From assembly GCA_965140415.1 (NCBI GenBank), contig OZ223209.1, forward strand, positions 2,784,001 to 2,848,000: a DNA stretch of 64,000 bases, in the 5' to 3' direction. A program made the translations under genes and the position numbers. The DNA comes from Myxococcota bacterium. Lineage in GTDB: Bacteria > Myxococcota_A > SURF-8. This document shows positions 25,514-38,863 of this stretch, in pieces (the stretch's first letter is position 1; each line of letters starts with the position of its first letter). The notes beneath the pieces are model-generated. The model ran no database searches and had not been told where the DNA came from. It saw only the letters and a list, made by a program, of their open reading frames with translations.

Positions 25514-26884
25514 TCAGGGCTGTTTTATCCAAACGGATTTCACGTTGACGAACTCCCGGATGCCTTCTTCCGATAGCTCTCTGCCATAACCCGAAAGCTT
25601 GATGCCACCAAAGGGCAGGCGAGGGTCGGATTTGACCATCCCATTGACGAAGACCGCTCCCGAATCGATGCGCCGTGCGTAGTCATCTGCGAGTTCCATA
25701 TTGCCGGTCCAGATTGAACCGCCAAGGCCAAGCGGCGATTCGTTGGCGATGCGAATCGCCTCATCGGCACTTTTGGCAGCGATCACCGGAGCCACCGGTC
25801 CGAAGGTCTCTTCATCCGCAACGTTCATTCCGGGGCGAACACCCGTCAGCATTGTAACCGGGTAATATGCTCCCGGGCCTTCCGGGATTTCTCCTCCCAT
25901 AACCAACTTGGCTCCACTGGCAACGGAAGCCGTCACCTGCTCGTGCAATTCGGCGCGCAGGTCGGTCCGCGCCATCGGTCCGATATCGGAATTTGAGTCC
26001 ATCGGGTCGCCCATGTTCAATTTGGATAAGTTCTCTTTGAATCGTTGTGCAAAGGAATCCAAAACGGGTTGTTCCACGATAAAGCGTTTTGCGGCAATGC
26101 AACTTTGACCGCCGTTGATAAGGCGGGCATCGGCGGCAACCTTGGCTGCCTGTTCGATATTGGCATCGGAAAGGACGATAAACGGATCGCTGCCTCCCAA
26201 TTCAAGAACGGTCTTTTTAAGGACCGACCCAGCCGTTGCCGCAACTTTGCGACCCGCGATTTCACTACCGGTCAATGTCACCGCCATCACGCGCGAATCC
26301 CGGATGACCTGTTCCGTCGTTCGGGCGGAAATCAGCAGCGTTTGGAAGGCACCTTCAGGGAAGCCCGCCTCAAGAAATATTTCCTCGATGGCAAGGGCGC
26401 TCATCGGTACGTTGGAGGCATGTTTAAGTAGACCGACGTTTCCTGCCATCAGCGCTGGGGCCGCGAATCGGATAACCTGCCAGAAGGGGAAGTTCCAGGG
26501 CATAATGGCAAGAACCGGTCCCAGTGGGTCGTAACGAACGTAGCTTTTATCGGCATCGGTTTCTTCCGTGCGATTTGATAGAAAGCGTTCCGCTTGTTCC
26601 GCATAAAAATCACAAACCCAGGCGCATTTTTCCACTTCGGCAAGCGACTGCTTGATGGGCTTGCCCATTTCCTGCGTGATGATTTCGCCATATTTGGCTG
26701 CATTTGATCGAAGTACTTTGGCTGAATTCGTCATGAGTTCCGAACGTTTGGCAAAGGGAATTTCTTTCCACTCTGAAAAAGTTTGCGATGCCTGTTGCAG
26801 TCGGGCTTCGATTCCATTTGCATCGGTTTCTTCAAACCGCTTGATTTCTTCTCCAGTTGCAGGATTTATACTGGCTATCGCCAT
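25514..26884 (-). CDS. NAD(P)-dependent succinate-semialdehyde dehydrogenase (Sad/SsaD-like)
   Basis: IMPWNFP, LELGGSDPF, GQSCIAAKRF, EETFGP and PFGGIKLSGYGREL motifs. Confidence 0.9.
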   Translation of the reverse strand: MAIASINPATGEEIKRFEETDANGIEARLQQASQTFSEWKEIPFAKRSELMTNSAKVLRSNAAKYGEIITQEMGKPIKQSLAEVEKCAWVCDFYAEQAERFLSNRTEETDADKSYVRYDPLGPVLAIMPWNFPFWQVIRFAAPALMAGNVGLLKHASNVPMSALAIEEIFLEAGFPEGAFQTLLISARTTEQVIRDSRVMAVTLTGSEIAGRKVAATAGSVLKKTVLELGGSDPFIVLSDANIEQAAKVAADARLINGGQSCIAAKRFIVEQPVLDSFAQRFKENLSKLNMGDPMDSNSDIGPMARTDLRAELHEQVTASVASGAKLVMGGEIPEGPGAYYPVTMLTGVRPGMNVADEETFGPVAPVIAAKSADEAIRIANESPLGLGGSIWTGNMELADDYARRIDSGAVFVNGMVKSDPRLPFGGIKLSGYGRELSEEGIREFVNVKSVWIKQP

Positions 26885-26924
26885 GATAGATTCCTTTCTT
26901 GTTTTGTAGGTTCGTGACCCTCTG

Positions 26925-28568
26925 TCAGTGTTGCAGAATTTCTCCCAGTCGCTTGGTCAACTTCAAATTTTCTCCGTAATCGACGGGAACCACGATCACG
27001 GTCGGTTTCGATTTTTCTTTAAATGCTTTTTTCATGATTGGAATAAAGTCTTCCGTACGTTCAACTTTCACACCATTGCAACCGAATGATTCCGCCAACT
27101 TAACCATGTCAGGATTCTTGATCACCGTGTGAGATGCTTTGCCGAATTGCGCCATCTGCTTCCAGGTGATCAAGCCGTATTCATCATCCTGCCATACCAG
27201 GAAAGTGGCTGGAATGTTGTATTGTACGGCAGTTGCCAGTTCCTGCACGTTCATCAGAAAACCACCGTCGCCGCATAGGCCGACCACATTTTTTTCCGGG
27301 AACAATCGTTTGGCCGAGATCGCGCCGGGCAGGGCGATGCCCATCGAGCAGAATCCATTCGAGATGATGCAGCTATTGGGAACGTAGGTTGGAAACGAGC
27401 GGGCTACCCACATTTTATGCGCCCCAACATCGCTTATAAGAATATCGTCGTCCCGCATAATCGCTCGTAAGTCGTGCAGAATGCGTTGAGGTTTCATGGG
27501 AAAATCCGGGCTGTCGGATTCGAAAGACAATTCCTGCTGAATGTGCGAGCGTTCCGTAGCAAATTCAGGAACATCTTTCCAGTGTTTGTGTGTCAGTCGT
27601 TGATTGATCGCCCACATGGCTCCAGCCAGGTCTCCGACGACTTCGACTTCAGGGCGGTAGTGCTCATCTACTTCTGCCGGAGTGAAATCGATGTGAATAA
27701 TGCGCTTGTTATGCTTGGGATTCCAAACGGATGGGTGCCATTCGACGAGATCGTAGCCGATGCATAAAACCAGATCCGCCTGATCGAAGGATTCGGAAAC
27801 ATGATCCCTGCTTTGCAAACCAGCAGTCATTAGGCTGCGTTCGTGACGTGCGCTGACTGCGCCTTTTCCCATAAAGGTATTTGTAACGTAAAAGCCGCTT
27901 TTTTCTACTAGTATATTCAATTGCTTAGCTGCTCTTGTGCGAACGCAGCCATTGCCGGCTAAGATGATGGGTCGCTCGGCCTGGGCCAGCAATTCCATTA
28001 CCCGATCGATCGCTTTCTCGTCTGCGGCAGGGCGTCTGACTTTCGATCCTTTTTGAAAAGGAACGTTTCCCGTGTCTTCTTTTGCAATGTTTTCAGGTAG
28101 TTCAATGAGGCAGGCACCGGGCTTTTCCGTTGCTGCGAGTTTGAAAGCTTTATGAATGACTTCGGGAATGTTGCAGCCGTGATAAATGGAGTGCGACCAT
28201 TTGGTGATCGGCTCGAATAAGTCAACAATATTCATGTTTTGGTGAGATTCTTTATGGAGACGCTGCGTGCTGGCTTGTCCGGCGATTGCCACAACCGGGC
28301 TTCGATCCATATTCGCATTTGCCACGCCGGTTACCAGATTGCTTGCTCCCGGTCCAAGGGTAGCCAAGCAAACGCCTGGCTTGCCTGTTAGTCTTCCATA
28401 AACGTCCGCCATAAAAGCTGCTCCCTGCTCGTGGCGGCAGATTACGAACTCAATTGGAGAATCCAGCAAGGAAATCATCAAATCGGCGTTTTCTTCACCC
28501 GGAACGCCGAAGATCGTGTCGACTCCTTCTTCTTCCAGGCATCGTAAAAACAAATCCGATGCTTTCAT
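26925..28568 (-). CDS. ThDP-dependent acetolactate-synthase-like protein; probable 2-oxoglutarate decarboxylase (OgdA-like)
   Basis: FGVPGEEN, RHEQGAAFMADVYGRLTG, ESHQ and GDGGFLMN motifs; co-oriented directly upstream of the SSADH gene. Confidence 0.75.
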   Translation of the reverse strand: MKASDLFLRCLEEEGVDTIFGVPGEENADLMISLLDSPIEFVICRHEQGAAFMADVYGRLTGKPGVCLATLGPGASNLVTGVANANMDRSPVVAIAGQASTQRLHKESHQNMNIVDLFEPITKWSHSIYHGCNIPEVIHKAFKLAATEKPGACLIELPENIAKEDTGNVPFQKGSKVRRPAADEKAIDRVMELLAQAERPIILAGNGCVRTRAAKQLNILVEKSGFYVTNTFMGKGAVSARHERSLMTAGLQSRDHVSESFDQADLVLCIGYDLVEWHPSVWNPKHNKRIIHIDFTPAEVDEHYRPEVEVVGDLAGAMWAINQRLTHKHWKDVPEFATERSHIQQELSFESDSPDFPMKPQRILHDLRAIMRDDDILISDVGAHKMWVARSFPTYVPNSCIISNGFCSMGIALPGAISAKRLFPEKNVVGLCGDGGFLMNVQELATAVQYNIPATFLVWQDDEYGLITWKQMAQFGKASHTVIKNPDMVKLAESFGCNGVKVERTEDFIPIMKKAFKEKSKPTVIVVPVDYGENLKLTKRLGEILQH

Positions 28569-29036: not shown

Positions 29037-30413
29037 TCAGCATGTTTCAAGCCAGTTTGAAAGCCACTGGATCTGACGGCGCACCTCTTTTGGAGCGGTT
29101 CCTCCCAATACCGAACGAGTAAGGACGGCCTGTTCATAGCTAAGCGAAAGCTCGGTCAGAGAAAGTTCGGGGAAGTCGGCTTTCAATTCCTCCGGGGTGA
29201 GAGATTTCAAGTTCTTTTGTTGCGATTCCAGCTTTGAAACAAGCTTTCCAACACGTTCGTGAGCGAGTCGGAAAGGAACGCCTGTTTTGGTGAGCAAATC
29301 TGCCAAATCAGTCGCGAGAAGATCGCCACTAAGTGAATTAGACAATTTCTCTTCGTTGAACGTTGCTCCATTCAACGCCCCGGTGAAAACGCGCAAAACG
29401 ATTTCCGTTGTATCCAGAGCATCGAATAAAGCGGTCTTGTCTTCTTGTAAATCTTTTGCATAACTCAGAGGAACGCCCTTGGTGAGAGCGAGTAAGACCG
29501 TGCATTGTCCGATGACCCGTGCCGCCTTGCCGCGAACCAATTCCATCGCGTCCGGGTTTCGTTTTTGCGGCATCATCGAACTGCCTGTCGAATAGGTGTC
29601 GTCGAAACGGATGTAGCCGAAAGCGGGATTGGACCAGAACACGAATTGTTCGGCGTAACGGGACAAATGCGTGCAGATCCCGGCGCAGGCGAACACCGTT
29701 TCCTGAACGGCGTCGCGGTCGCTGATGGCGTCGATGCTGTTTCGAAGAACATCCGAAAAGCCTAGATCCTGAGCCAATCTTTCCCTGTCTACCGGGAAGC
29801 CGGAGCCTGCCAGCGCACCGCTGCCCAAAGGACAGCAATCGGCGTGGCTATAAGCTGCTTCAAGTCGCTCGATGTCACGTTTTAGTGCGAAAGCGAGTGA
29901 TAGCAGGAAATGTCCCAGCGTTACCGGTTGTGCGGGTTGAAGATGCGTGGTCCCGGCGAAAAGAGTATCCACATGTTGTTCCGACCGTTTTAGAAGTACG
30001 CGAAGTAGTTGACGGGTCAACTCGATCTGCGCTTTCAGGGCGGACTTTAAATAAAGTCGTAAATCGCAAACAACCTGATCGTTGCGACTACGACCTGTGT
30101 GAATTTTCGCTCCTGTTGGTCCCAGTTTCTCAGTTAGAAGGCGTTCGACCAGGGTGTGTACGTCTTCATCATCGGGAAGAGTATCGAAGGCACCTTGTTC
30201 AAAATCAATAAGGATCGCATCCAGAGCGGGGAGCAACTCCGACAGTTCCTTTTCGGAAAGGACGCCGATACGCTGCAATTCCTTTGCCCAGGCTTTATTC
30301 GTTTGGATGTCGTATGGTAGAAAGCGGATATCTACCGGTAACGAGCGGTTAAGTGCGTCCATCCATTCGTCGGATTCGTTCTGAATGCGTCCCTGATAAA
30401 GTGTCACGATCAA
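29037..30413 (-). CDS. argH: Argininosuccinate lyase
   Basis: [24 protein letters not shown] and DLQEDK motifs. Confidence 0.97.
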
Positions 30414-31690
30414 TCCCTTTTGAAATTATAGCGGAACTTCGAATATTTCGGTGCTTGATAGCCGTTGAGGCGCTCGCCGCCTTCCATTTCGATCAAAGTC
30501 CGAACCTTGATTGGCAGACCATACAGGTTGATGAAGCCTTCCGCGTCGCTCTGGTCGTACACGTCGTCCTGGCCGAAGGTGGCGAAGTCTTCCCGATACA
30601 GCGAGTAAGGCGAGCGCCGACCTTTGACGATGATATTTCCCTTGTACAGCATCAGGCGAACATCGCCGGTGACGTTCTGCTGGGTTTCGGCGACGAATGC
30701 ATCCAGCGCCTCGCGCAAAGGTACAAAGTATCGTCCATTGTATACCAACTCGGCATATTTCGGAGCAAGTTGTTCTTTAAAGTGCATGGTCTCTCCATCG
30801 AGCACCAGACTTTCCAATTCGTGATGAGCCATGTACAGAATCGATCCGCCGGGAGTTTCGTATACGCCACGGGATTTCATGCCGACCAGACGGTTTTCAA
30901 CGATGTCCACACGCCCGACGCCGTGAATGCGTCCCAGTTCGTTCAGTTTCTCAACCAGATCGGCGGCGGAATAGGGCTCGTCATCGATGCTTTTAGGGAC
31001 TCCTTTTTCAAAGCCGATCTGTACTTCCAACCCCTCATCGGGAGCTTCCCAGGGGGCATTGGTAATATGGAATACCCGATCAGGGGCGCTTTCCCAGGGA
31101 TCTTCCAATTCGCCGCCTTCACTGGAAAGGTGCCACAGGTTGCGGTCGTGACTATATATCCCCTTGGGATCGACGTTTAGCGGAATATTGCGCTCTTTGG
31201 CATAGGCGATGGCATCTTCGCGGGAGCGAATATCCCACATGCGCCAGGGTGCGATAACCTTGATTTTCGGATTGTAGGCTTTAAAGGCCAATTCAAAACG
31301 CACCTGATCGTTGCCTTTGCCGGTGCAACCATGCGCGACGGCGTCTGCCCCTTCTTCTTCAGCCACTTCCATCATGCGTTTTGCAATCAATGGCCGGGCG
31401 ATGCTGGTTCCCAAAAGATAGCGTCCTTCATAGACTGCGCCAGCCTGCACCATCGGGAAAAGATAGTCGCTGCAAAAGATCTCCTTCAGATCATCGACGA
31501 TCAGCTTTTCGGCACCGGTTTTCAAGGCTTTTTGCTCCAAGCCTTCCAGTTCTCCCACTCCCTGACCGACATCTGCAACGTAGGCGACGACCTGGCAGTT
31601 ATAGCGCTCTTTCAACCATGAAATGATGATGGAGGTGTCCAATCCACCAGAATATGCTAATACGACTTTCTTGATTTCTTGCTCGTCCAT
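30410..31690 (-). CDS. argG: Argininosuccinate synthase
   Basis: [24 protein letters not shown] and SRGVYETP motifs. Confidence 0.98.
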
Positions 31691-31722: not shown

Positions 31723-32160
31723 TTACTTGATCAGGTTTCGAAGTGTTTTTATCGCTTGCTGTGTTTTGGCAGGACCATCGCAGGCGACGAAGACGGTGTC
31801 GTCACCGGCAACCGTTCCAACAACAAAGGGGAACCTGGCGTTATCCAGGGCGATTCCTACTGCGCCTGCTTCTCCGACCGGAGTGTGAATGACCAACATG
31901 CTGTCACCCGCTTTGTTGATTGCCATTATTTTTTCTTTGAGTCTTTTCGGTAAGGGTTCCGAACGAAGTTCGGGACCAGGCAGAGCGTATTGACCTTGTG
32001 TTTTAATCAGCATAAGGGATTTGATATCGCGTGAAATCGTGGCTTGTGTGGTGTCGAAGCCTTGTTTCTTCAACGCATCCGCCAATTCGTTCTGGGTGCT
32101 GACGCGCTTACTGGCGATCAATTCCAGAATGGCTTCTCGTCGTTTTCGAGTGTCAGACAT
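31723..32160 (-). CDS. argR: Arginine repressor
   Basis: TQATISRDI and GTVAGDDT motifs. Confidence 0.95.
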
Positions 32161-33238
32161 GATTCGACTCCGTACCGCTGTGATTGTTCAGGAATTGAGA
32201 GGCGATTTGCAGATACGTTTGTGTGCCTGCTTCAAGTTCTTCTATGCTGATTCGTTCATCCGGCTGGTGGGAATATTTCGGATTTCCCGGTCCAAGCTTG
32301 ATGGCGGAAATTCTCGCTTTTTGTAAAAACGCCCAGTCGCTGGCAGCATCGGAGGCGAATACTTTCTTTTGCGGCAGAGTCCTACGAGCCGCCATCGCAA
32401 TCGGATGATCCGATGCCGTTTCACATGGAATCCAGTGATCAGAGCAAACGCTTATGTTTCCACTGACCACTCCCTGCAACAGCATCAGGATTTCCTCGTT
32501 GCTGTAGGAGGGGGTCGTTCGAATATCCAATAACGCTTTGGCGTTTGGCGGAGTGACATTATCCGCCACTCCTGCAAGAATTCGGGTCGGTGTAACCCGG
32601 ATCGTTCCAAGAGTTGGATGACTACGCTCGAAGGGAACCTTTTTCAAATTGATGAGATCGCCTGCCAGTAGATGAATCGCGTTGGTTCCGTTTTCACGGG
32701 CCGCGTGTCCCTGTTTGCCGGAATTTGTCAGTTCTACAACCAGCAAGCCGCGCTGTGAAATGGCGATATCCAGGTTGGTTGGCTCGCCGACGACCGCGCC
32801 CTGAAAGCTGCCCAGCTTTTTCAACAATCGGGGGAGGGAGGGGTCGTTGCCTTCTTCTCCGATGGAAAGCGCGACGACCAACTCGCCGCATTCAAAACCT
32901 TGTTGCTGCAAAGCAGTTGTTGCGGCAAGCATGGCGGCGCAACTGCCACGCGCATCCACTGCGCCGCGTCCGTAGAGCCAGTCGTTTTCTAGAATTCCCT
33001 GCTGAGCAGGATACTTCCAACCTTCTCCTGCCGGAACCGTATCCAGGTGGGAGTTGAACAGCAGCCGAACCCCGGACTTTTCCCCTTTAATGGCAACCCA
33101 TATTCCATCTTCACAACGCTGACAGGGCAGACCGGCATCCGTACAGATGTCGTAAGCGGTTTGCAAAATCGCTTCTTCATGACCGGTTTCCCCCGAAACC
33201 GCAAGCAAACGCTGCAATATGGACAGGGTGTCAGGCAA
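32153..33238 (-). CDS. argE: M20 family deacylase, acetylornithine deacetylase-like
   Basis: NSHLDTV, GRGAVD, GEE, GEPT and SHQPDE motifs; lies within the arg operon. Confidence 0.8.
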   Translation of the reverse strand: MPDTLSILQRLLAVSGETGHEEAILQTAYDICTDAGLPCQRCEDGIWVAIKGEKSGVRLLFNSHLDTVPAGEGWKYPAQQGILENDWLYGRGAVDARGSCAAMLAATTALQQQGFECGELVVALSIGEEGNDPSLPRLLKKLGSFQGAVVGEPTNLDIAISQRGLLVVELTNSGKQGHAARENGTNAIHLLAGDLINLKKVPFERSHPTLGTIRVTPTRILAGVADNVTPPNAKALLDIRTTPSYSNEEILMLLQGVVSGNISVCSDHWIPCETASDHPIAMAARRTLPQKKVFASDAASDWAFLQKARISAIKLGPGNPKYSHQPDERISIEELEAGTQTYLQIASQFLNNHSGTESNHV

Positions 33239-34151
33239 GTTCCGTCTCCTGATAAACCTGTTTTTCGCGTTCTTCGACGATCATGGTGCCGCAGCCTTCG
33301 CCGGTGAACAGTTCGACCAGCAGAGAATCGGGAGTAAAGCCACCGATGATGTGCGTTCGTTTGACGCCCGACTGCACGGCTTTAAGGCAGGCGTCCAGTT
33401 TCGGTCGCATACCGGCGGAAACCGCACCGCTTTGCAGCAACTCATCCAAGTCCTGCTTGTCGGCAAAAGGAATGAGCGAACCGGGATCGTCCAGATTGGC
33501 GAAAAGGCCGCCGCTCTGAGTGATGAAGATCAGTTTCTTGGCTTGCATGGAAACGGCAACGGCTTTTGCGATGCTGTCTGCGTTGATATTAAGCACCTGG
33601 CCCGCTCCGTCACTGGAAAGGCAGGACAGCACCGGCACGTAGTCTTGATCGAGCAGTTGCGACAAGGTTTCAGTGTCCACGGAAACGATGTCCCCCACAA
33701 AACCGAAATCAACCGTTTTTGTATCGCCCTCATCGGTTTCAATGGAGACTGGAGGTCTTTTGCTTGCCAGGATCATATCGCCGTCCACACCGCTCAAGCC
33801 CACTGCCTTGCATTGCTGCTTTTGCAGGGAGACCGTCAGATCCAGGTTGAGTTGTCCGGCGTAGACCATTTTAACGACATCTAAAGTCCGCGCATCGGTT
33901 ACACGTCGACCGGCGACCATGACCGGCTCGATGCCGAGCTTACGGCTGATTTCACTGGCTTGCGGTCCACCGCCATGAACGACGACCACACGAATGCCGA
34001 GATCATTCAAAAGGGCGATCTGCTCTGCAAGATTGGTGACAGCGTCTGCATCGTTCAGAATCGCGCCACCGATTTTAATAACGAACGTCTGTTTTTTGTA
34101 ATGGCGAATGTACGTTCGTGCTTCCTTAAGTGAAATAATCGAAGGATTCAT
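33231..34151 (-). CDS. argB: Acetylglutamate kinase
   Basis: IKIGG, VHGGG, GRRVT, NINAD and GMRPK motifs; no GNAT domain. AGGAG RBS precedes ATG 34151. Confidence 0.92.
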   Translation of the reverse strand: MNPSIISLKEARTYIRHYKKQTFVIKIGGAILNDADAVTNLAEQIALLNDLGIRVVVVHGGGPQASEISRKLGIEPVMVAGRRVTDARTLDVVKMVYAGQLNLDLTVSLQKQQCKAVGLSGVDGDMILASKRPPVSIETDEGDTKTVDFGFVGDIVSVDTETLSQLLDQDYVPVLSCLSSDGAGQVLNINADSIAKAVAVSMQAKKLIFITQSGGLFANLDDPGSLIPFADKQDLDELLQSGAVSAGMRPKLDACLKAVQSGVKRTHIIGGFTPDSLLVELFTGEGCGTMIVEEREKQVYQETELA

Positions 34152-34158
34152 GTTCTCC

Positions 34159-35316
34159 TCATTCAAAACAACGTTGTAAGGCTTCAACAAACAGCAAGGC
34201 GTCTTTTTGAGACAGCACCAGTGGTGGCATCATACGGAAGATTTCGGGACGATTGCTGCTGCCGACGATGATGCGGTGTTTTTGCAGCAGGTGTTGTCGT
34301 ATGGGGCTGCTGTCTTCAAAGAGTTCCACGCCCAACAACAACCCACGACCATGCACCGCTTTGACTTTCGAAAGCTTTTTCAAGGCCGTTTTCAGTCGAT
34401 CGCCAACCGAACGGGCCTGCTCAAGAACGTTTTCTTTCTGGAGGATATCCAATGTTGCCAGCGCCGCCGCGCAAGCCAGGGGACCGCCACCGAACGTCGA
34501 GCCCAGCATCCCGCTTTTGACATGTTGGGTGATCGCTTCATTGGCGATTGTCGCTCCAACCGGAAAACCACCGGCCAGGCCCTTGGCCATGGTCAGAATA
34601 TCGGGAGTGACTCCGTATGCTTCGGCTGCCGTATAAAAGCCCATGCGACCCGCACCACACTGCACTTCATCGAAAATAAGAACGGAACCGGTTTCATCGC
34701 AACGCTTGCGCAACGCCTGGAGAAATTCCGGACTTGCATCGATTGCACCGGCCAGACCTTGCACCGGTTCGATGATGACGGCGGCGCAGTCGTCCGTGAC
34801 AATCTCGTTCAAATCCTGCGTTTGATTCATTTCAATCAGGCGAACGTGCGGAAAGAGAGCTTCTCCATTACAGGATGCAAGCTTGCGGTATTTTTCGATG
34901 CCTGAAACGGCCAGCGTGAGCAAGCTGCGACCATGGAAGCCGCCATGAATTGAAACGATGGTCTTGCGTCCGGTTGACAAGCGCGCCAGGGTCAAGGCGT
35001 TTTCATTCGCTTCCGCACCGCTGTTACACAAAAATACGGAAGCAAGTCCCTTCGGCATCCATTCGAGCAATCGCTCGGAAAGCCTCTGGCGCAGCGGATG
35101 ATCGGAAATATTGGAGTAAAAGATTAAGCGCTCGGCCTGCGCCGCGATGGCTTGTACCAGACGCGGGTGACAATGACCGACGGAGGCGACGGCGTGTCCG
35201 CCGTACAAGTCGAGATATTCGTTGCCGTCTTCGTCGATGACGGTGCAGCCCGTACCGGCAACCAACTTCATCGGTAGTTGCGGATAAACGGGCATTTGTG
35301 GAGCGGGACTTAACAT
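34159..35316 (-). CDS. argD: Acetylornithine aminotransferase (class III PLP)
   Basis: NSGAEANE, FHGR, EPVQG, DEVQCG and STFGGGPL motifs. Confidence 0.9.
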   Translation of the reverse strand: MLSPAPQMPVYPQLPMKLVAGTGCTVIDEDGNEYLDLYGGHAVASVGHCHPRLVQAIAAQAERLIFYSNISDHPLRQRLSERLLEWMPKGLASVFLCNSGAEANENALTLARLSTGRKTIVSIHGGFHGRSLLTLAVSGIEKYRKLASCNGEALFPHVRLIEMNQTQDLNEIVTDDCAAVIIEPVQGLAGAIDASPEFLQALRKRCDETGSVLIFDEVQCGAGRMGFYTAAEAYGVTPDILTMAKGLAGGFPVGATIANEAITQHVKSGMLGSTFGGGPLACAAALATLDILQKENVLEQARSVGDRLKTALKKLSKVKAVHGRGLLLGVELFEDSSPIRQHLLQKHRIIVGSSNRPEIFRMMPPLVLSQKDALLFVEALQRCFE

Positions 35317-36350
35317 GGGTAGGCTCCTGTATGATGCAGCCCGGCGGTTTCGGAAAGACCGAGCATCAGGTTCATGTTCTGAATCGCCTGTCCGGCAGCG
35401 CCTTTGACGAGATTATCCAGAACAAGCGCGATTTCCACTTCATCGTTTTTCTGTGCCACGTGAATATGAACGTGGTTTGTGCCTGCAATCTCGGCCAGTT
35501 TTGGCGGCTGATCCAGGACATGAACGAAAGGCGCATTCTCGTTATAAAAGCGATTATATAAATCAGGAAGATCTACAGAAGTGATCTGTTCATTCTGAAG
35601 ATATGCCGTTGCGGCGATGCCGCGCACGAAAGGTCCGGAATGTGACAGCAAACGACTTTGAACGGTATGCCCTGCAATCCGGGAAAGCGTTTCGTTGATT
35701 TCCGGTTCGTGCTGGTGCGACAGCGTTTTGTAGGCATAGAAATTACCATCACGGAAGGGGTGGTGTGTTCCGATCTTTGGATGAATGCCGGAGCCGGATG
35801 AACCCGTTACTGCAAAGACGCCAACAGGAAACGAGAGCAGTCCTGCATTTGCCAAAGGCAATAACAGCAATTCTGCGGCGGTTGCAAAACAGCCGGGATT
35901 GGCGATGCGGGTTGTGGTTTCAATTTGCGGTTTAAAGGCTTCCGGCAGTCCATAAACGAAGGATTCCGTTAGTTCGAAGCAGTGATGTTCGCCGTAATTG
36001 TCTGCATATTCCTTTTGTGAGGAAAGCCTGAAATCGGCAGCCAGATCAATGATTTTTAAAGAGTCGTATGAAGTTAACTCCTTCATCAGTTTGTTGCTTT
36101 GACCATGCGGCATTGCCAGGAAAAGGACTTTGCATTGCTCTGCCAGTTGTGCCGGGTCAAGGTCGCGGAAGCAATCTTTTGTGAGATGACGCAAACTCGG
36201 ATGCACGCTGCATAAAGATGCGTTCGCGTGACTTCGGGAAATTGCCAGAACGTTTTCAACCTGTGGATGCTGATATAAAAGCCGAAGCAATTCTCCGCCT
36301 GCCAGTCCCCCTGCACCGATCACGCCTGCTGTAATCGTTGTTTCAGTCAC
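35310..36350 (-). CDS. argC: N-acetyl-gamma-glutamyl-phosphate reductase
   Basis: IDLAADFRL, IANPGCFAT and DNLVKGAAGQAIQNMN motifs. Confidence 0.95.
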   Translation of the reverse strand: MTETTITAGVIGAGGLAGGELLRLLYQHPQVENVLAISRSHANASLCSVHPSLRHLTKDCFRDLDPAQLAEQCKVLFLAMPHGQSNKLMKELTSYDSLKIIDLAADFRLSSQKEYADNYGEHHCFELTESFVYGLPEAFKPQIETTTRIANPGCFATAAELLLLPLANAGLLSFPVGVFAVTGSSGSGIHPKIGTHHPFRDGNFYAYKTLSHQHEPEINETLSRIAGHTVQSRLLSHSGPFVRGIAATAYLQNEQITSVDLPDLYNRFYNENAPFVHVLDQPPKLAEIAGTNHVHIHVAQKNDEVEIALVLDNLVKGAAGQAIQNMNLMLGLSETAGLHHTGAYPC

Positions 36351-37411
36351 AGCAGGGCCGCCTTTCTGGAATAGGCGTCCAGCACGATCTTGGATAATCC
36401 TTCGATATCCGAACGCGCGTTGTGCGCGGGGATACCCAACGAAGACGTGATGAAGTCACGACCTACCGCGTTGTCCGTCACGGGGCCGGTGAAGACATCG
36501 ACAGCCAGACCGAAGCTATTGTTGAATAGTTGTACTGCGCCAAAAGCTGCGACAGGGTCGGGAGCGCAAAGAACAAAACAGGCAGCGACGCTCATCAGTT
36601 GCTCATCGGACAAGATCTCCCGAACGCCGTATTGACCCAGGATGCCGTCGCCCAATTCGGCAACGATCAGATCCGGTGTTTCGCGAGCAAGTCTATTGAT
36701 CAGACCGCGCGCAATCGGAAGAATCATGTTGCCATTGGTGGAAACGACACCGGCATCGGTGAAGTCCATCACGGGGTCGGCTCCGGCATCGCCCATTGAA
36801 AGGATGTCGCGCATGAGGCTGACGCCGGTCAGTTTGACGGCGGCAACGCGCAAGCCTCGATGTGACAGGCGGCGCACGATTTCAGTTGCAGCCAGGGTCT
36901 TTCCGCTGTTCATGCTCGTTCCCGCCACGTAAATGATTGGCGGTGTGTTATCCAGCGTTTCGGCTGGTTGGATGTCGTTGGCGCTGATTGTGGCTGGCAC
37001 ACCCACACGATCTCCGATTTTTGGGAAGGCGAGCACGCTGCCAAGCACCTCGACATTAAAAGGATTTCCCAAGTCGGGATTGATAGCGGTGCATTTACCG
37101 ATGACGCCACCAAGGTTCAGAATTTGCAGCGTATCCCCAACGTTGACGGAAGAGGGGACCTGTCCTGCATAGCCTTGCAGCGCTTGTCTGGCTCCCAATA
37201 CACCGGCGACGATGTCTCCCTTGCGTATCTTGATCATACGTCCGGCATAGTTTTCGATGGTGTCGTATTGAAATTTCTGTGTGATTACGCGCACCGCGAC
37301 GATTGCGCCTTCGATGGCGGGGATTTCGTCTCCGATTACGGCGTTGTAATCCAGTTTCGCATTCCGTGTTGAAGAAGCGATTCGGTCAAGTTGTATTCGT
37401 CTCACATCCAT
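36347..37411 (-). CDS. DUF1611/DgcN-like P-loop protein, first gene of the arg operon
   Basis: GTSMNSGKT P-loop-like motif, KLTG..RD, DFTDAGVVST and ELGDGILG; stop overlaps the argC start. Confidence 0.7.
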   Translation of the reverse strand: MDVRRIQLDRIASSTRNAKLDYNAVIGDEIPAIEGAIVAVRVITQKFQYDTIENYAGRMIKIRKGDIVAGVLGARQALQGYAGQVPSSVNVGDTLQILNLGGVIGKCTAINPDLGNPFNVEVLGSVLAFPKIGDRVGVPATISANDIQPAETLDNTPPIIYVAGTSMNSGKTLAATEIVRRLSHRGLRVAAVKLTGVSLMRDILSMGDAGADPVMDFTDAGVVSTNGNMILPIARGLINRLARETPDLIVAELGDGILGQYGVREILSDEQLMSVAACFVLCAPDPVAAFGAVQLFNNSFGLAVDVFTGPVTDNAVGRDFITSSLGIPAHNARSDIEGLSKIVLDAYSRKAALL

Positions 37412-37419
37412 GGTTCACC

Positions 37420-37483
37420 TGCATAACAATGCAATAAACAACGTAGAAGGTGCATGAATATGCAGATTGCGCATAAAAGTCAA
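37420..37483 (-). promoter_or_regulatory. ARG boxes (ArgR operators) overlapping the arg operon promoter
   Basis: Palindromes TGCATAACAATGCA (37420) and TGCATGAATATGCA (37451). A degenerate third box at 37470 contains the minus-strand -35 TTGACT. Confidence 0.75.
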
Positions 37484-37726: not shown

Positions 37727-38863
37727 ATGTCCAACACGCCACTTTGGGCCATGTCGCTGCAAATCCTACTGTTATTGTTGTTGCCTGCGCTTGTTTTAAA
37801 GGCTGCAAAGCATCTGAAAATCGTACAACTTCTTTCTCCTGTGCTTGTGTGTTACCTAAGTGGAATTGCGCTGGCCAACCAGGAGACGATCCCTCTTTCA
37901 TTTGATATTGCCATGATCGTAAGAAATGCGACGGTGGCACTGGCTATCCCGTTACTGCTCTATTCGGTGGATATAATCGGCTGGTTGCGCTTGTCGAGGG
38001 CAACGGTGATCTCTTTTGCATTGTGTGTCTTCTCGGTGATGCTGACCAGTGCCATCAGTCATTTCATGTACCACGATACCTTCGATAACAGTGCGAAAAT
38101 CGCCGGAATGATGGTCGGTGTGTACACGGGCGGGACGCCGAACATGAACGCCATCGGCACTGCGCTGGGAATCGAGCCGGAAATGTTCATCGTGCTGGAA
38201 AGCGTGGACATGATTATGGGAGCGATGTACCTGATGTTCCTGCTATCTTTCGGCCCACGTCTTTTTGCGTATATATTGCCTCCATTCAAAAACGCACAAG
38301 GTGTTGAAAATGAACTGAACGATCAACTTCCGGTAAGTGAAGTCCTTTTCAAGCATGTCATGATTTCATTAGGATTGACGATCGTCGTCGTTGCATTGGG
38401 TGGCGGGCTTGGAATGCTGCTGCCGAAAACCTTTCAAGAGGCGGGTGCCATTCTCCTGATCACGACCTTCGCGATTATTTGTTCGCTTAATCCGAAAGTT
38501 CGCAACCTGAAAGGTTCACATGAATCGGGCATGTACGTCCTACTGATTTTCTGTGTTGCGGTAGGAAGTTGTGCTAAATTCGAAACTCTGGTCAACACCT
38601 CTCCGGCTATTTTCGGTTTCATCGGTTTCGCCATGTTCGGTGCCGTGGTTCTGCATCTGCTGCTTTCCAAATTGTTCAAAATCGATAGAGACACCGTGAT
38701 TATCACCTCGGCTGCTGGTATTTTCGGTCCGGCGTTTATCGGTCCGATTGCACAAGCGCTTAATAACAGGGAAATCTTTTTCAGTGGTATCGCAACCGGA
38801 TTGGTTGGCTATGCGATTGGAAATTATTTGGGGCTTGCGCTTGCCTGGATGTTGGGTGGTTAG
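37727..38863 (+). CDS. DUF819 family membrane protein (putative transporter)
   Basis: Polytopic membrane protein with LAIPLLL, GVYTGGTPNM and GYAIGNYLG motifs. Confidence 0.85.
   Translation: MSNTPLWAMSLQILLLLLLPALVLKAAKHLKIVQLLSPVLVCYLSGIALANQETIPLSFDIAMIVRNATVALAIPLLLYSVDIIGWLRLSRATVISFALCVFSVMLTSAISHFMYHDTFDNSAKIAGMMVGVYTGGTPNMNAIGTALGIEPEMFIVLESVDMIMGAMYLMFLLSFGPRLFAYILPPFKNAQGVENELNDQLPVSEVLFKHVMISLGLTIVVVALGGGLGMLLPKTFQEAGAILLITTFAIICSLNPKVRNLKGSHESGMYVLLIFCVAVGSCAKFETLVNTSPAIFGFIGFAMFGAVVLHLLLSKLFKIDRDTVIITSAAGIFGPAFIGPIAQALNNREIFFSGIATGLVGYAIGNYLGLALAWMLGG

Follow-up and report, generated by a model that had tools for sequence, protein, structure and literature searches.

A P-loop protein encoded at the head of a Myxococcota arginine operon is a candidate N-acyl-L-glutamate synthase

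The window analysed here is a stretch of 64,000 nucleotides from the genome of a Myxococcota bacterium (GenBank assembly GCA_965140415.1, contig OZ223209.1, positions 2,784,001 to 2,848,000), and its minus strand carries an arginine operon headed by a gene that we call X. We propose that X makes the N-acyl-L-glutamate that enters the arginine pathway, by transfer of an acyl group, likely succinyl, from acyl-coenzyme A (acyl-CoA), and that it is a non-GNAT stand-in for ArgA and ArgJ. Judged from homology and genomic context, we give this proposal an even chance of being correct. An earlier note on this DNA had read X as an N-acetylglutamate synthase replacing ArgA without being its orthologue. 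The core of that idea, a non-orthologous replacement at the first step, is supported by comparative evidence, namely the linkage of X to argC, its near-complete mutual exclusion with ArgJ and ArgA, and the remote homology of its P-loop domain. The acetyl group is probably wrong, because carbamoyltransferases encoded beside relatives of X point to succinylated intermediates.

A missing first step in the arginine pathway

Pfam and NCBIfam scans of the operon proteins reproduced the gene order X-argC-argD-argB-argE-argR-argG-argH given in the earlier note, with the qualification that the argE product can be assigned only to the ArgE/DapE family; argC, argB, argG and argH all pass curated cut-offs. 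As the note had also stated, ArgB has no fused acetyltransferase domain and consists of an AA_kinase domain alone, and the scan found no GNAT gene within the operon. The M20 enzyme is the presumed N-acylornithine deacylase of this lineage.

The claim that argA and argJ are absent was followed through the whole genome (G000; 5.98 Mb in 1 contig, 93.7% complete), where it is borne out for ArgJ and for classical ArgA, which are the forms within reach of these searches; synthases consisting of a GNAT domain only lie outside it. We observed no match to PF01960 (ArgJ) in the genome, and the classical ArgA model TIGR01890 found nothing beyond the kinase region of ArgB (positions 5-288), its acetyltransferase half being unmatched genome-wide. 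A search with PF04768 gave no match in the genome, but its control also matched nowhere, and this result is therefore uninformative. A canonical ArgF (ornithine carbamoyltransferase, OTC) is encoded 1 Mb from the window (C1:1833500-1834408, 401 bits). With argB, argC, argD, the M20 gene, argG and argH in the operon and argF elsewhere, it follows that glutamate acylation is the only step without a recognised enzyme.

We considered a pathway on a LysW-type carrier protein and rejected it, as the clusters contain no ATP-grasp ligase and the packed operon leaves no space for a small carrier gene. The ArgB, ArgD and M20 proteins have sub-threshold NCBIfam matches to LysZ, LysJ and LysK.

X is linked to argC and rarely occurs with ArgJ or ArgA

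To describe the gene neighbourhood we used the best 80 of 591 genomic relatives of X, which come from Gemmatimonadota, Myxococcota, Planctomycetota, Acidobacteriota, Elusimicrobiota, Bdellovibrionota and Pseudomonadota metagenome-assembled genomes (MAGs). The gene directly after X on the same strand is argC in 79 of these loci, and in the 80th the contig ends 281 bases past X. Directly upstream of X stands argG in 72/80 loci, and the commonest order is argG-X-argC-argD-[1-kb gene]-argB-M20-argH-argR.

Within the window's phylum, we sampled 251 genomes evenly, all but one of them with completeness of 90% or more and contamination of 5% or less, and called X strong at 298 bits or more to the X profile. 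The sample contains strong X in 46 genomes, ArgJ in 135, ArgA in 20 and ArgC in 203. Every strong-X genome has ArgC (46/46), none has ArgA (0/46) and one has ArgJ (1/46), so that 45 of the 46 lack both ArgJ and ArgA, while one or other of these is present in 134 of the 205 genomes without strong X. The 203 ArgC genomes divide into 45 with X only, 128 with ArgJ or ArgA only, 1 with both and 29 with neither. We give these distributions as counts and apply no statistical test, because related genomes are not independent. The earlier note had proposed looking for co-occurrence of X homologues with arg operons in genomes that lack argA and argJ, and both the linkage to argC and the phylum counts agree with such a pattern.

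The single genome with both strong X (370 bits) and ArgJ (405 bits) is G198 (C59:1686-2702 and C21:14286-15398), which also has two argC matches. Its assembly has 830 contigs and 3% contamination, and either redundancy or a mixed bin is possible. Among the 29 ArgC genomes with no X, ArgJ or ArgA, 18 fall in one family (f9; for example G006, G012, G018 and G024), and the phylum thus holds at least one further unrecognised route to N-acylglutamate.

Weaker X-like genes, scoring 86-172 bits and matching from about residue 35-50 on, occur in 13/251 genomes, and all 13 of these genomes have ArgJ. At the four such loci examined (L086:6758-7774, L087:6662-7690, L088:6808-8478 and L089:6862-7980, from G081, G181, G016 and G184) the gene is not beside arg genes; its neighbours encode Asparaginase_2/isoaspartyl-peptidase-type proteins (two loci), an M20 peptidase (one) and a GCS2 glutamate-cysteine-ligase-like protein (one). 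We conclude that these genes form a paralogous subfamily with another role.

Neighbouring carbamoyltransferases predict succinylated intermediates

The 1-kb gene of the commonest cluster encodes ArgF', a member of the N-acetylornithine carbamoyltransferase family (cut-off 288 bits; two examples reach 379 and 406). The substrate specificity of this family can be read at the site equivalent to Glu92 of the Xanthomonas N-acetylornithine transcarbamylase, which we placed in the alignment by means of point mutants in the PDB. According to Appendix 2 of bioRxiv 10.1101/2024.10.14.618325, which cites Shi et al. 2007, the substitutions E92A, E92P, E92S and E92V turn the enzyme to N-succinylornithine. 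ArgF' covers this site in 62 of the 80 loci, and the residue found there is V in 50, A in 9, and I, S and T in 1 each, with Glu in none. The neighbouring ArgF' proteins of relatives therefore predict succinylated rather than acetylated intermediates.

The window's own lineage does not encode this read-out, and its acyl group was approached through phylogeny. A quick maximum-likelihood tree, for which the paralogues served as root, places the window's X with the X proteins of two Myxococcota MAGs (L006 and L007; Shimodaira-Hasegawa-like approximate likelihood ratio test, SH-aLRT, 93), and this group is nested in a 66-row clade (SH-aLRT 97) that is otherwise linked to V-type ArgF', the A-type lineages lying deeper. 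X is also 55-60% identical to X proteins from ArgF'-bearing loci. The L006, L007 and L082 clusters have no ArgF', and argR-argG-argH follow their M20 gene. On this evidence, succinyl is the most likely acyl group in the window's lineage. The simplest reading would be that an ancestral succinyl-type pathway lost ArgF' and now deacylates at ornithine and uses the canonical OTC. Such a combination of succinyl intermediates with a canonical OTC would be a route that we did not meet in those parts of the literature that were covered.

The other OTC-like matches in the window's genome are one gene resembling aspartate carbamoyltransferase and one YgeW. The latter, a 398-residue carbamoyltransferase at C1:2930755-2931951 (L004:1435-2631), was considered as a hidden ArgF' and rejected, since it matches YgeW at 683 bits; this knotted carbamoyltransferase is not an arginine gene.

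Should X instead make N-acetyl-L-glutamate, the pathway would be an ordinary linear acetyl pathway and the M20 enzyme an acetylornithine deacetylase. The window operon and its nearest relatives (L006, L007 and L082; genomes G023, G029, G017 and G035) do have the classical layout, with a canonical OTC and no ArgF', and DgcN, a remote relative of X, transfers acetyl. We nevertheless regard this as decidedly unlikely, given that 62/62 ArgF' proteins beside X homologues are non-Glu at the specificity site, that the window's clade is nested among ArgF'-linked lineages and that X remains so similar to the X proteins of ArgF'-bearing loci.

X combines a P-loop domain with an N-terminal domain of its own

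X belongs to a family of at least 3687 homologues among the candidates scored, or 1418 representative clusters at 50% identity. The 120 homologues listed share 55-100% identity with X across 94% or more of its length, and each is named 'hypothetical protein' at source. The Protein Atlas holds automatic names alone for the family ('hypothetical', 'DUF1611 domain-containing'), with PF07755 (DUF1611) assigned to 16% of one cluster's members.

An AlphaFold (AF2) model of X, built on a 68-sequence alignment (predicted local distance difference test, pLDDT, 97), contains two domains, an N-terminal all-beta domain (residues ~1-145) and a C-terminal P-loop domain of the SIMIBI type (~150-354). The P-loop-like motif GTSMNSGKT that the earlier note had pointed out lies at residues 164-172; among the 68 homologues G170 and K171 never vary, and T172 is kept in 90% or more. 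This Walker A motif is canonical (GxxxxGKT), in comparison to four true DUF1611 proteins that read GKR there. Lys193, at the end of the strand after the P-loop, is invariant and aligns with the conserved Lys in a 'CKP..TG' stretch of M. tuberculosis BioD, and the ELGDG motif that follows a beta strand contains E252, with conservation of 90% or more. X thus shows three features of SIMIBI nucleoside triphosphatases (NTPases), namely the fold, the Walker A motif GxxxxGK[ST] and a conserved acidic residue past the Walker-B strand.

The earlier note had called X DUF1611/DgcN-like. This description stands as a statement of remote homology of the C-terminal domain, and it fails as a statement of family membership. 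PF07755 scores only 19.1 bits on X (cut-off 25) over residues 157-194, a MobB match is sub-threshold and local to the region around the P-loop, and the DgcN model NF041892 gave no match on X at E <= 0.001. At the level of profiles, hhalign of the X family against the four true DUF1611 proteins, which were taken from genomes of the window's phylum, gave 95.5% probability (E 1.4e-8) over 174 columns, restricted to X residues 149-345. At the level of structure, the C-terminal domain matches the DUF1611 structures 2g0t (Z 17.6, root-mean-square deviation 2.8, 181 aligned) and 2obn (Z 16.2) best in VIA-align, followed by BioD (Z 15.4-15.8), DgcN (7XRJ, Z 15.1), CTP synthase (14.8) and formyl-tetrahydrofolate (formyl-THF) synthetase (12.8); the fold Z is 13-16 to BioD, HypB, signal recognition particle (SRP) GTPases and MinD. 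The note had suggested a comparison with DgcN; the relationship to DUF1611 emerged with VIA-align and hhalign but not with Foldseek, for which the leading PDB matches were SRP GTPases, HypB and BioD, with no DUF1611 entry among the matches listed. When a family hidden Markov model was run on PDB sequences, every match was local to the P-loop, at E >= 1e-4, and DUF1611 chains were absent at E <= 1. From these comparisons, we place the C-terminal domain of X as a remote homologue of DUF1611_C and X itself outside the DUF1611 and DgcN families.

The N-terminal domain is without a structural relative among solved structures, as judged from its model. When modelled alone (pLDDT 90), its best match had Z 3.4 and none of 48,161 PDB chains reached Z >= 5; no Pfam match was found in residues 1-150.

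DgcN, the protein of 7XRJ and NF041892, is an acetyl-CoA:D-glutamate N-acetyltransferase. X shares with it the C-terminal P-loop alpha/beta domain, and N-acylation of glutamate is the activity proposed for X as well. In contrast, DgcN and other DUF1611 proteins have an N-terminal part of their own that does not align with X, which instead has the all-beta domain without a PDB match, and their Walker A reads GKR and not GKT; K193 is an additional invariant residue of X. Gene context also differs, as true DUF1611 genes adjoin genes for a DgcA-like epimerase or Orr-like racemase and X adjoins arg genes. PF07755 found nothing above threshold in the window's genome, and true members occur in 5/121 genomes of the phylum, one of which, G017 from the window's order, carries both X and a true DUF1611 gene. 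Against NF041892, whose cut-off is 480 bits, a true DUF1611 protein of a relative reaches 161. At L095:1069-3323, L092:380-2670 and L096:401-2634, a true DUF1611 gene stands beside an Orr-like gene (338-405 bits, below cut-off) or a DgcA/Ala-Glu-epimerase-like gene.

BioD and other ATP-dependent SIMIBI enzymes have in common with X the fold of the C-terminal domain, the GTxxxxGKT P-loop and the lysine of the next strand. They differ in that BioD is only ~12-15% identical to X and stands in a biotin rather than an arginine context, in the extra N-terminal domain of X, and in the use of ATP, which is no more than possible for X. With ArgA (kinase-like plus GNAT), ArgJ and the GNAT-only forms, X would share the proposed reaction, the position in the pathway, linkage to arg operons and control by ArgR; their folds are unrelated to X, in which Pfam and NCBIfam detected no GNAT, kinase-like or ArgJ (Ntn) domain.

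Relation to a published prediction

The functional idea is already in print as a prediction, reached independently there and here, which bears out the earlier note's caution that similar proteins might have been proposed for this role elsewhere. In the portions considered here, the preprint 'Novel enzymes for amino acid biosynthesis in diverse bacteria and archaea: GapMind 2026' (bioRxiv 10.1101/2024.10.14.618325) predicts that the hypothetical protein ACG33_RS14135 (UniProt A0A127FCT3) is an alternative N-succinylglutamate synthase, and does so without experiment on that protein. Its arguments are that homologues are nearly always in arg clusters and never occur with ArgA homologues, that Foldseek finds a weak match to 7XRJ, and that 90% of 70 neighbouring ArgF' proteins have A, P, S or V at position 92. 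It also states that Steroidobacter denitrificans has the X-type gene and no ArgE candidate.

We regard the X family and the preprint's protein as the same on the strength of these matching descriptions: both nearly always stand in an arg cluster alongside argB, C, D, F', E, G, H and R, both exclude ArgA, and both match 7XRJ weakly. A non-Glu residue at site 92 of ArgF' is likewise found beside X homologues, the window's genome itself being without ArgF'. Unlike S. denitrificans, as described in those parts of the preprint, the window's lineage combines a canonical ArgF with an M20 deacylase in the operon and has no ArgF'. The preprint, as far as it was covered, set its exclusion argument against ArgA, and the present counts add ArgJ. 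No Steroidobacter protein was among the homologues listed for X and for the Pseudomonadota homologue L069.

Other candidate synthases have been described. In the parts of Ashniev et al. 2022 (PMC9026213) that were covered, the candidates are of the GNAT type (ArgA2) and the M20 type (ArgA3) only, with the X family not among them, and ArgA2/BT3761 of Bacteroidetes is given as a GNAT protein and an N-succinylglutamate synthase. A full-text search found no literature that joins DUF1611 with N-acetylglutamate.

Weighing acyl-CoA transfer against other functions

Several points weigh against the proposal that X is an acyl-CoA-dependent N-acylglutamate synthase. The support for any member of the family, including that in the preprint, is at the level of prediction, and the link between X and the preprint's protein is one of matching descriptions. 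The 29/203 ArgC genomes with no X, ArgJ or ArgA imply that unrecognised synthases exist, and one may be present in the window's genome too. The anti-correlation of X with ArgJ would fit any function tied to ArgE, since a genome with ArgJ needs neither ArgA nor ArgE. For the acyl group, ArgF' scores above cut-off in none of five genomes, comprising the window's and its four nearest sampled relatives of its family or order (G023, G029, G017 and G035), and because no ArgF' is present the assignment in the window's genome is phylogenetic only, drawn from a quick tree in which the window's branch is long. Finally, the homology to DgcN is remote, confined to the C-terminal domain and tied, to within about 2 Z units, with dethiobiotin synthetase, and a GKT Walker A and an invariant Lys193 are more typical of ATP users than of CoA-dependent transferases.

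Because the GKT Walker A and the BioD-type lysine are kept, ATP-dependent ligation is a live alternative to acyl-CoA transfer. X would then be a ligase of the BioD/CobQ/formyl-THF-synthetase type that forms an acyl phosphate from free succinate or acetate by phosphorylation and then couples it to L-glutamate at its amino group, acyl-CoA playing no part. Formyl-THF synthetase provides a precedent in this fold class for ATP-dependent N-acylation via an acyl phosphate. The Walker A of X is conserved as well as canonical, where DUF1611 has GKR; invariant K193 aligns with the BioD Lys; E252 in ELGDG resembles the acidic residue of BioD-type enzymes; and BioD comes within about 2 Z of the top structural match, with the ATP-activating CTP synthase and formyl-THF synthetase also matched. 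On the other side, the two top structures and the sole significant profile match are DUF1611, whose one characterised member is reported to use acetyl-CoA, P-loops can bind the phosphates of CoA too, and we identified no nucleotide-base recognition motif in X. We rank acyl-CoA transfer, at even confidence, ahead of ATP-dependent ligation, which we consider possible and distinctly less probable.

A synthase of either kind can also be set against the idea that X is an accessory NTPase serving another step, perhaps by activating the M20 deacylase or supplying it with metal as SIMIBI-type metallochaperones do, or else a regulator, and that an unrecognised GNAT encoded elsewhere makes the acyl-glutamate. 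SIMIBI NTPases abound in the Foldseek and VIA-align lists, among them HypB, UreG and MeaB/MMAA, which deliver metals; a role linked to ArgE predicts the exclusivity of X and ArgJ equally well; and the 29 ArgC genomes attest to hidden synthases. However, X is tied to argC and not to the M20 gene. In loci such as L069 from Pseudomonadota, X and argC are accompanied by ArgF' and the 10 kb downstream contain no M20 match, and S. denitrificans, on the preprint's account, has X and no ArgE candidate (bioRxiv 10.1101/2024.10.14.618325). The operon has no GNAT, and the acetyltransferase half of TIGR01890 is unmatched in the genome. We judge an accessory role to be highly unlikely.

Organisation and putative control of the X operon

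The genes from X to argH are translationally coupled (Table 1). The stop codon of X overlaps the start of argC as GTGA, and the ORF coordinates give the remaining junctions as overlaps of 4-32 nt or a spacing of 32 nt, in keeping with the tight packing that the earlier note had described. That note had extended X to position 37483; its reading frame reaches only to the ATG at 37411, and the remainder is noncoding and forms the upstream control region. This start codon is supported by homologues of 351-364 residues, which span 95-100% of X.

Table 1. Genes of the X operon and elements of its control region, in window coordinates
Feature	Position	Strand	Remarks
gene X	36347..37411	-	354 aa, ATG start; predicted N-acyl-L-glutamate synthase
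argC	35310..36350	-	TIGR01850 331 bits, cut-off 233.6; GTG start
argD, acetyl/succinyl-ornithine family aminotransferase	34159..35316	-	PF00202 335 bits; TIGR00707 358 bits, below cut-off 410
argB, N-acylglutamate kinase	33231..34190	-	TIGR00761 224 bits, cut-off 151; 319 aa
M20 ArgE/DapE-family deacylase	32153..33238	-	PF01546 + PF07687; every NCBIfam match under cut-off
argR, arginine repressor	31723..32160	-	PF01316 + PF02863
argG, argininosuccinate synthase	30410..31690	-	NF001770 608 bits
argH, argininosuccinate lyase	29037..30413	-	TIGR00838 494 bits
ARG-box-like perfect palindrome TGCATATTCATGCA (minus-strand reading)	37451..37464		overlaps -10-like TATTCA hexamer, by eye
ARG-box-like perfect palindrome TGCATTGTTATGCA	37420..37433		31 bp from first palindrome, 9 bp upstream of ATG
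TTGACT, -35-like hexamer	37478..37483	-	17 nt upstream of TATTCA; by eye only

The ARG boxes that the note had placed directly upstream of X are present as two perfect ARG-box-like palindromes, TGCATnnnnATGCA, which we predict to be ArgR operators. Across the whole genome, the palindrome occurs at 12 sites compared to about 5 expected from composition. In four of the seven loci scanned (L006, L007, L082 and L079), each with X at the head of its cluster, a version with 1-2 mismatches is found no more than 90 nt upstream of X. A strict sigma-70 consensus scan upstream of X called no promoter, the TTGACT-17-TATTCA pair included. Near the genome's own argF (L002, G000:C1:1832000-1835908), we found no ARG-box-like palindrome above chance (1 match with 2 mismatches against 2.1 expected), and this separate gene may be outside the control of an X-type operator.

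Beyond argH and a 468-bp gap, the window contains genes for an acetolactate-synthase-like enzyme dependent on thiamine pyrophosphate (547 aa) and an aldehyde dehydrogenase (456 aa) on the minus strand (25514-28568). A DUF819 membrane protein is encoded divergently from X (37727-38863, plus strand).

Proposed pathway and significance

By analogy with DgcN, the C-terminal P-loop domain of X would bind acyl-CoA and acylate L-glutamate on its amino group. ArgB, ArgC and ArgD would then carry N-succinyl intermediates up to N-succinylornithine, which the operon's M20 enzyme would deacylate to ornithine, and the canonical ArgF from elsewhere in the genome would complete arginine together with ArgG and ArgH. 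Repression of the operon would come from ArgR bound at the palindrome pair ahead of X. A bolder conjecture, which we think rather improbable, is that X is a new kind of ATP-dependent N-acylglutamate synthetase, its BioD-like domain activating free succinate or acetate and its N-terminal domain of unseen fold presenting L-glutamate and perhaps sensing arginine, and that the arginine pathway it supplies is a fifth variant, in which the intermediates are succinylated, deacylation occurs at ornithine and a canonical OTC follows.

The first committed step of arginine synthesis is without a recognised enzyme in much of Gemmatimonadota, Myxococcota, Planctomycetota, Acidobacteriota and other phyla, and because this enzyme goes unrecognised such genomes appear auxotrophic in automated reconstructions. 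The present analysis contributes the N-terminal domain without a relative among solved structures, the extension of the exclusivity to ArgJ and a lineage without ArgF'; the window adds a family member with an unusual pathway layout and sharpens the question of whether the acyl group comes from a CoA thioester or from ATP and a free acid. If X is the missing synthase, the gap would be closed by a large family (1418 clusters at 50% identity), N-acylglutamate synthesis would have a third unrelated protein fold, and the family would show the extent of the succinyl variant of the pathway.

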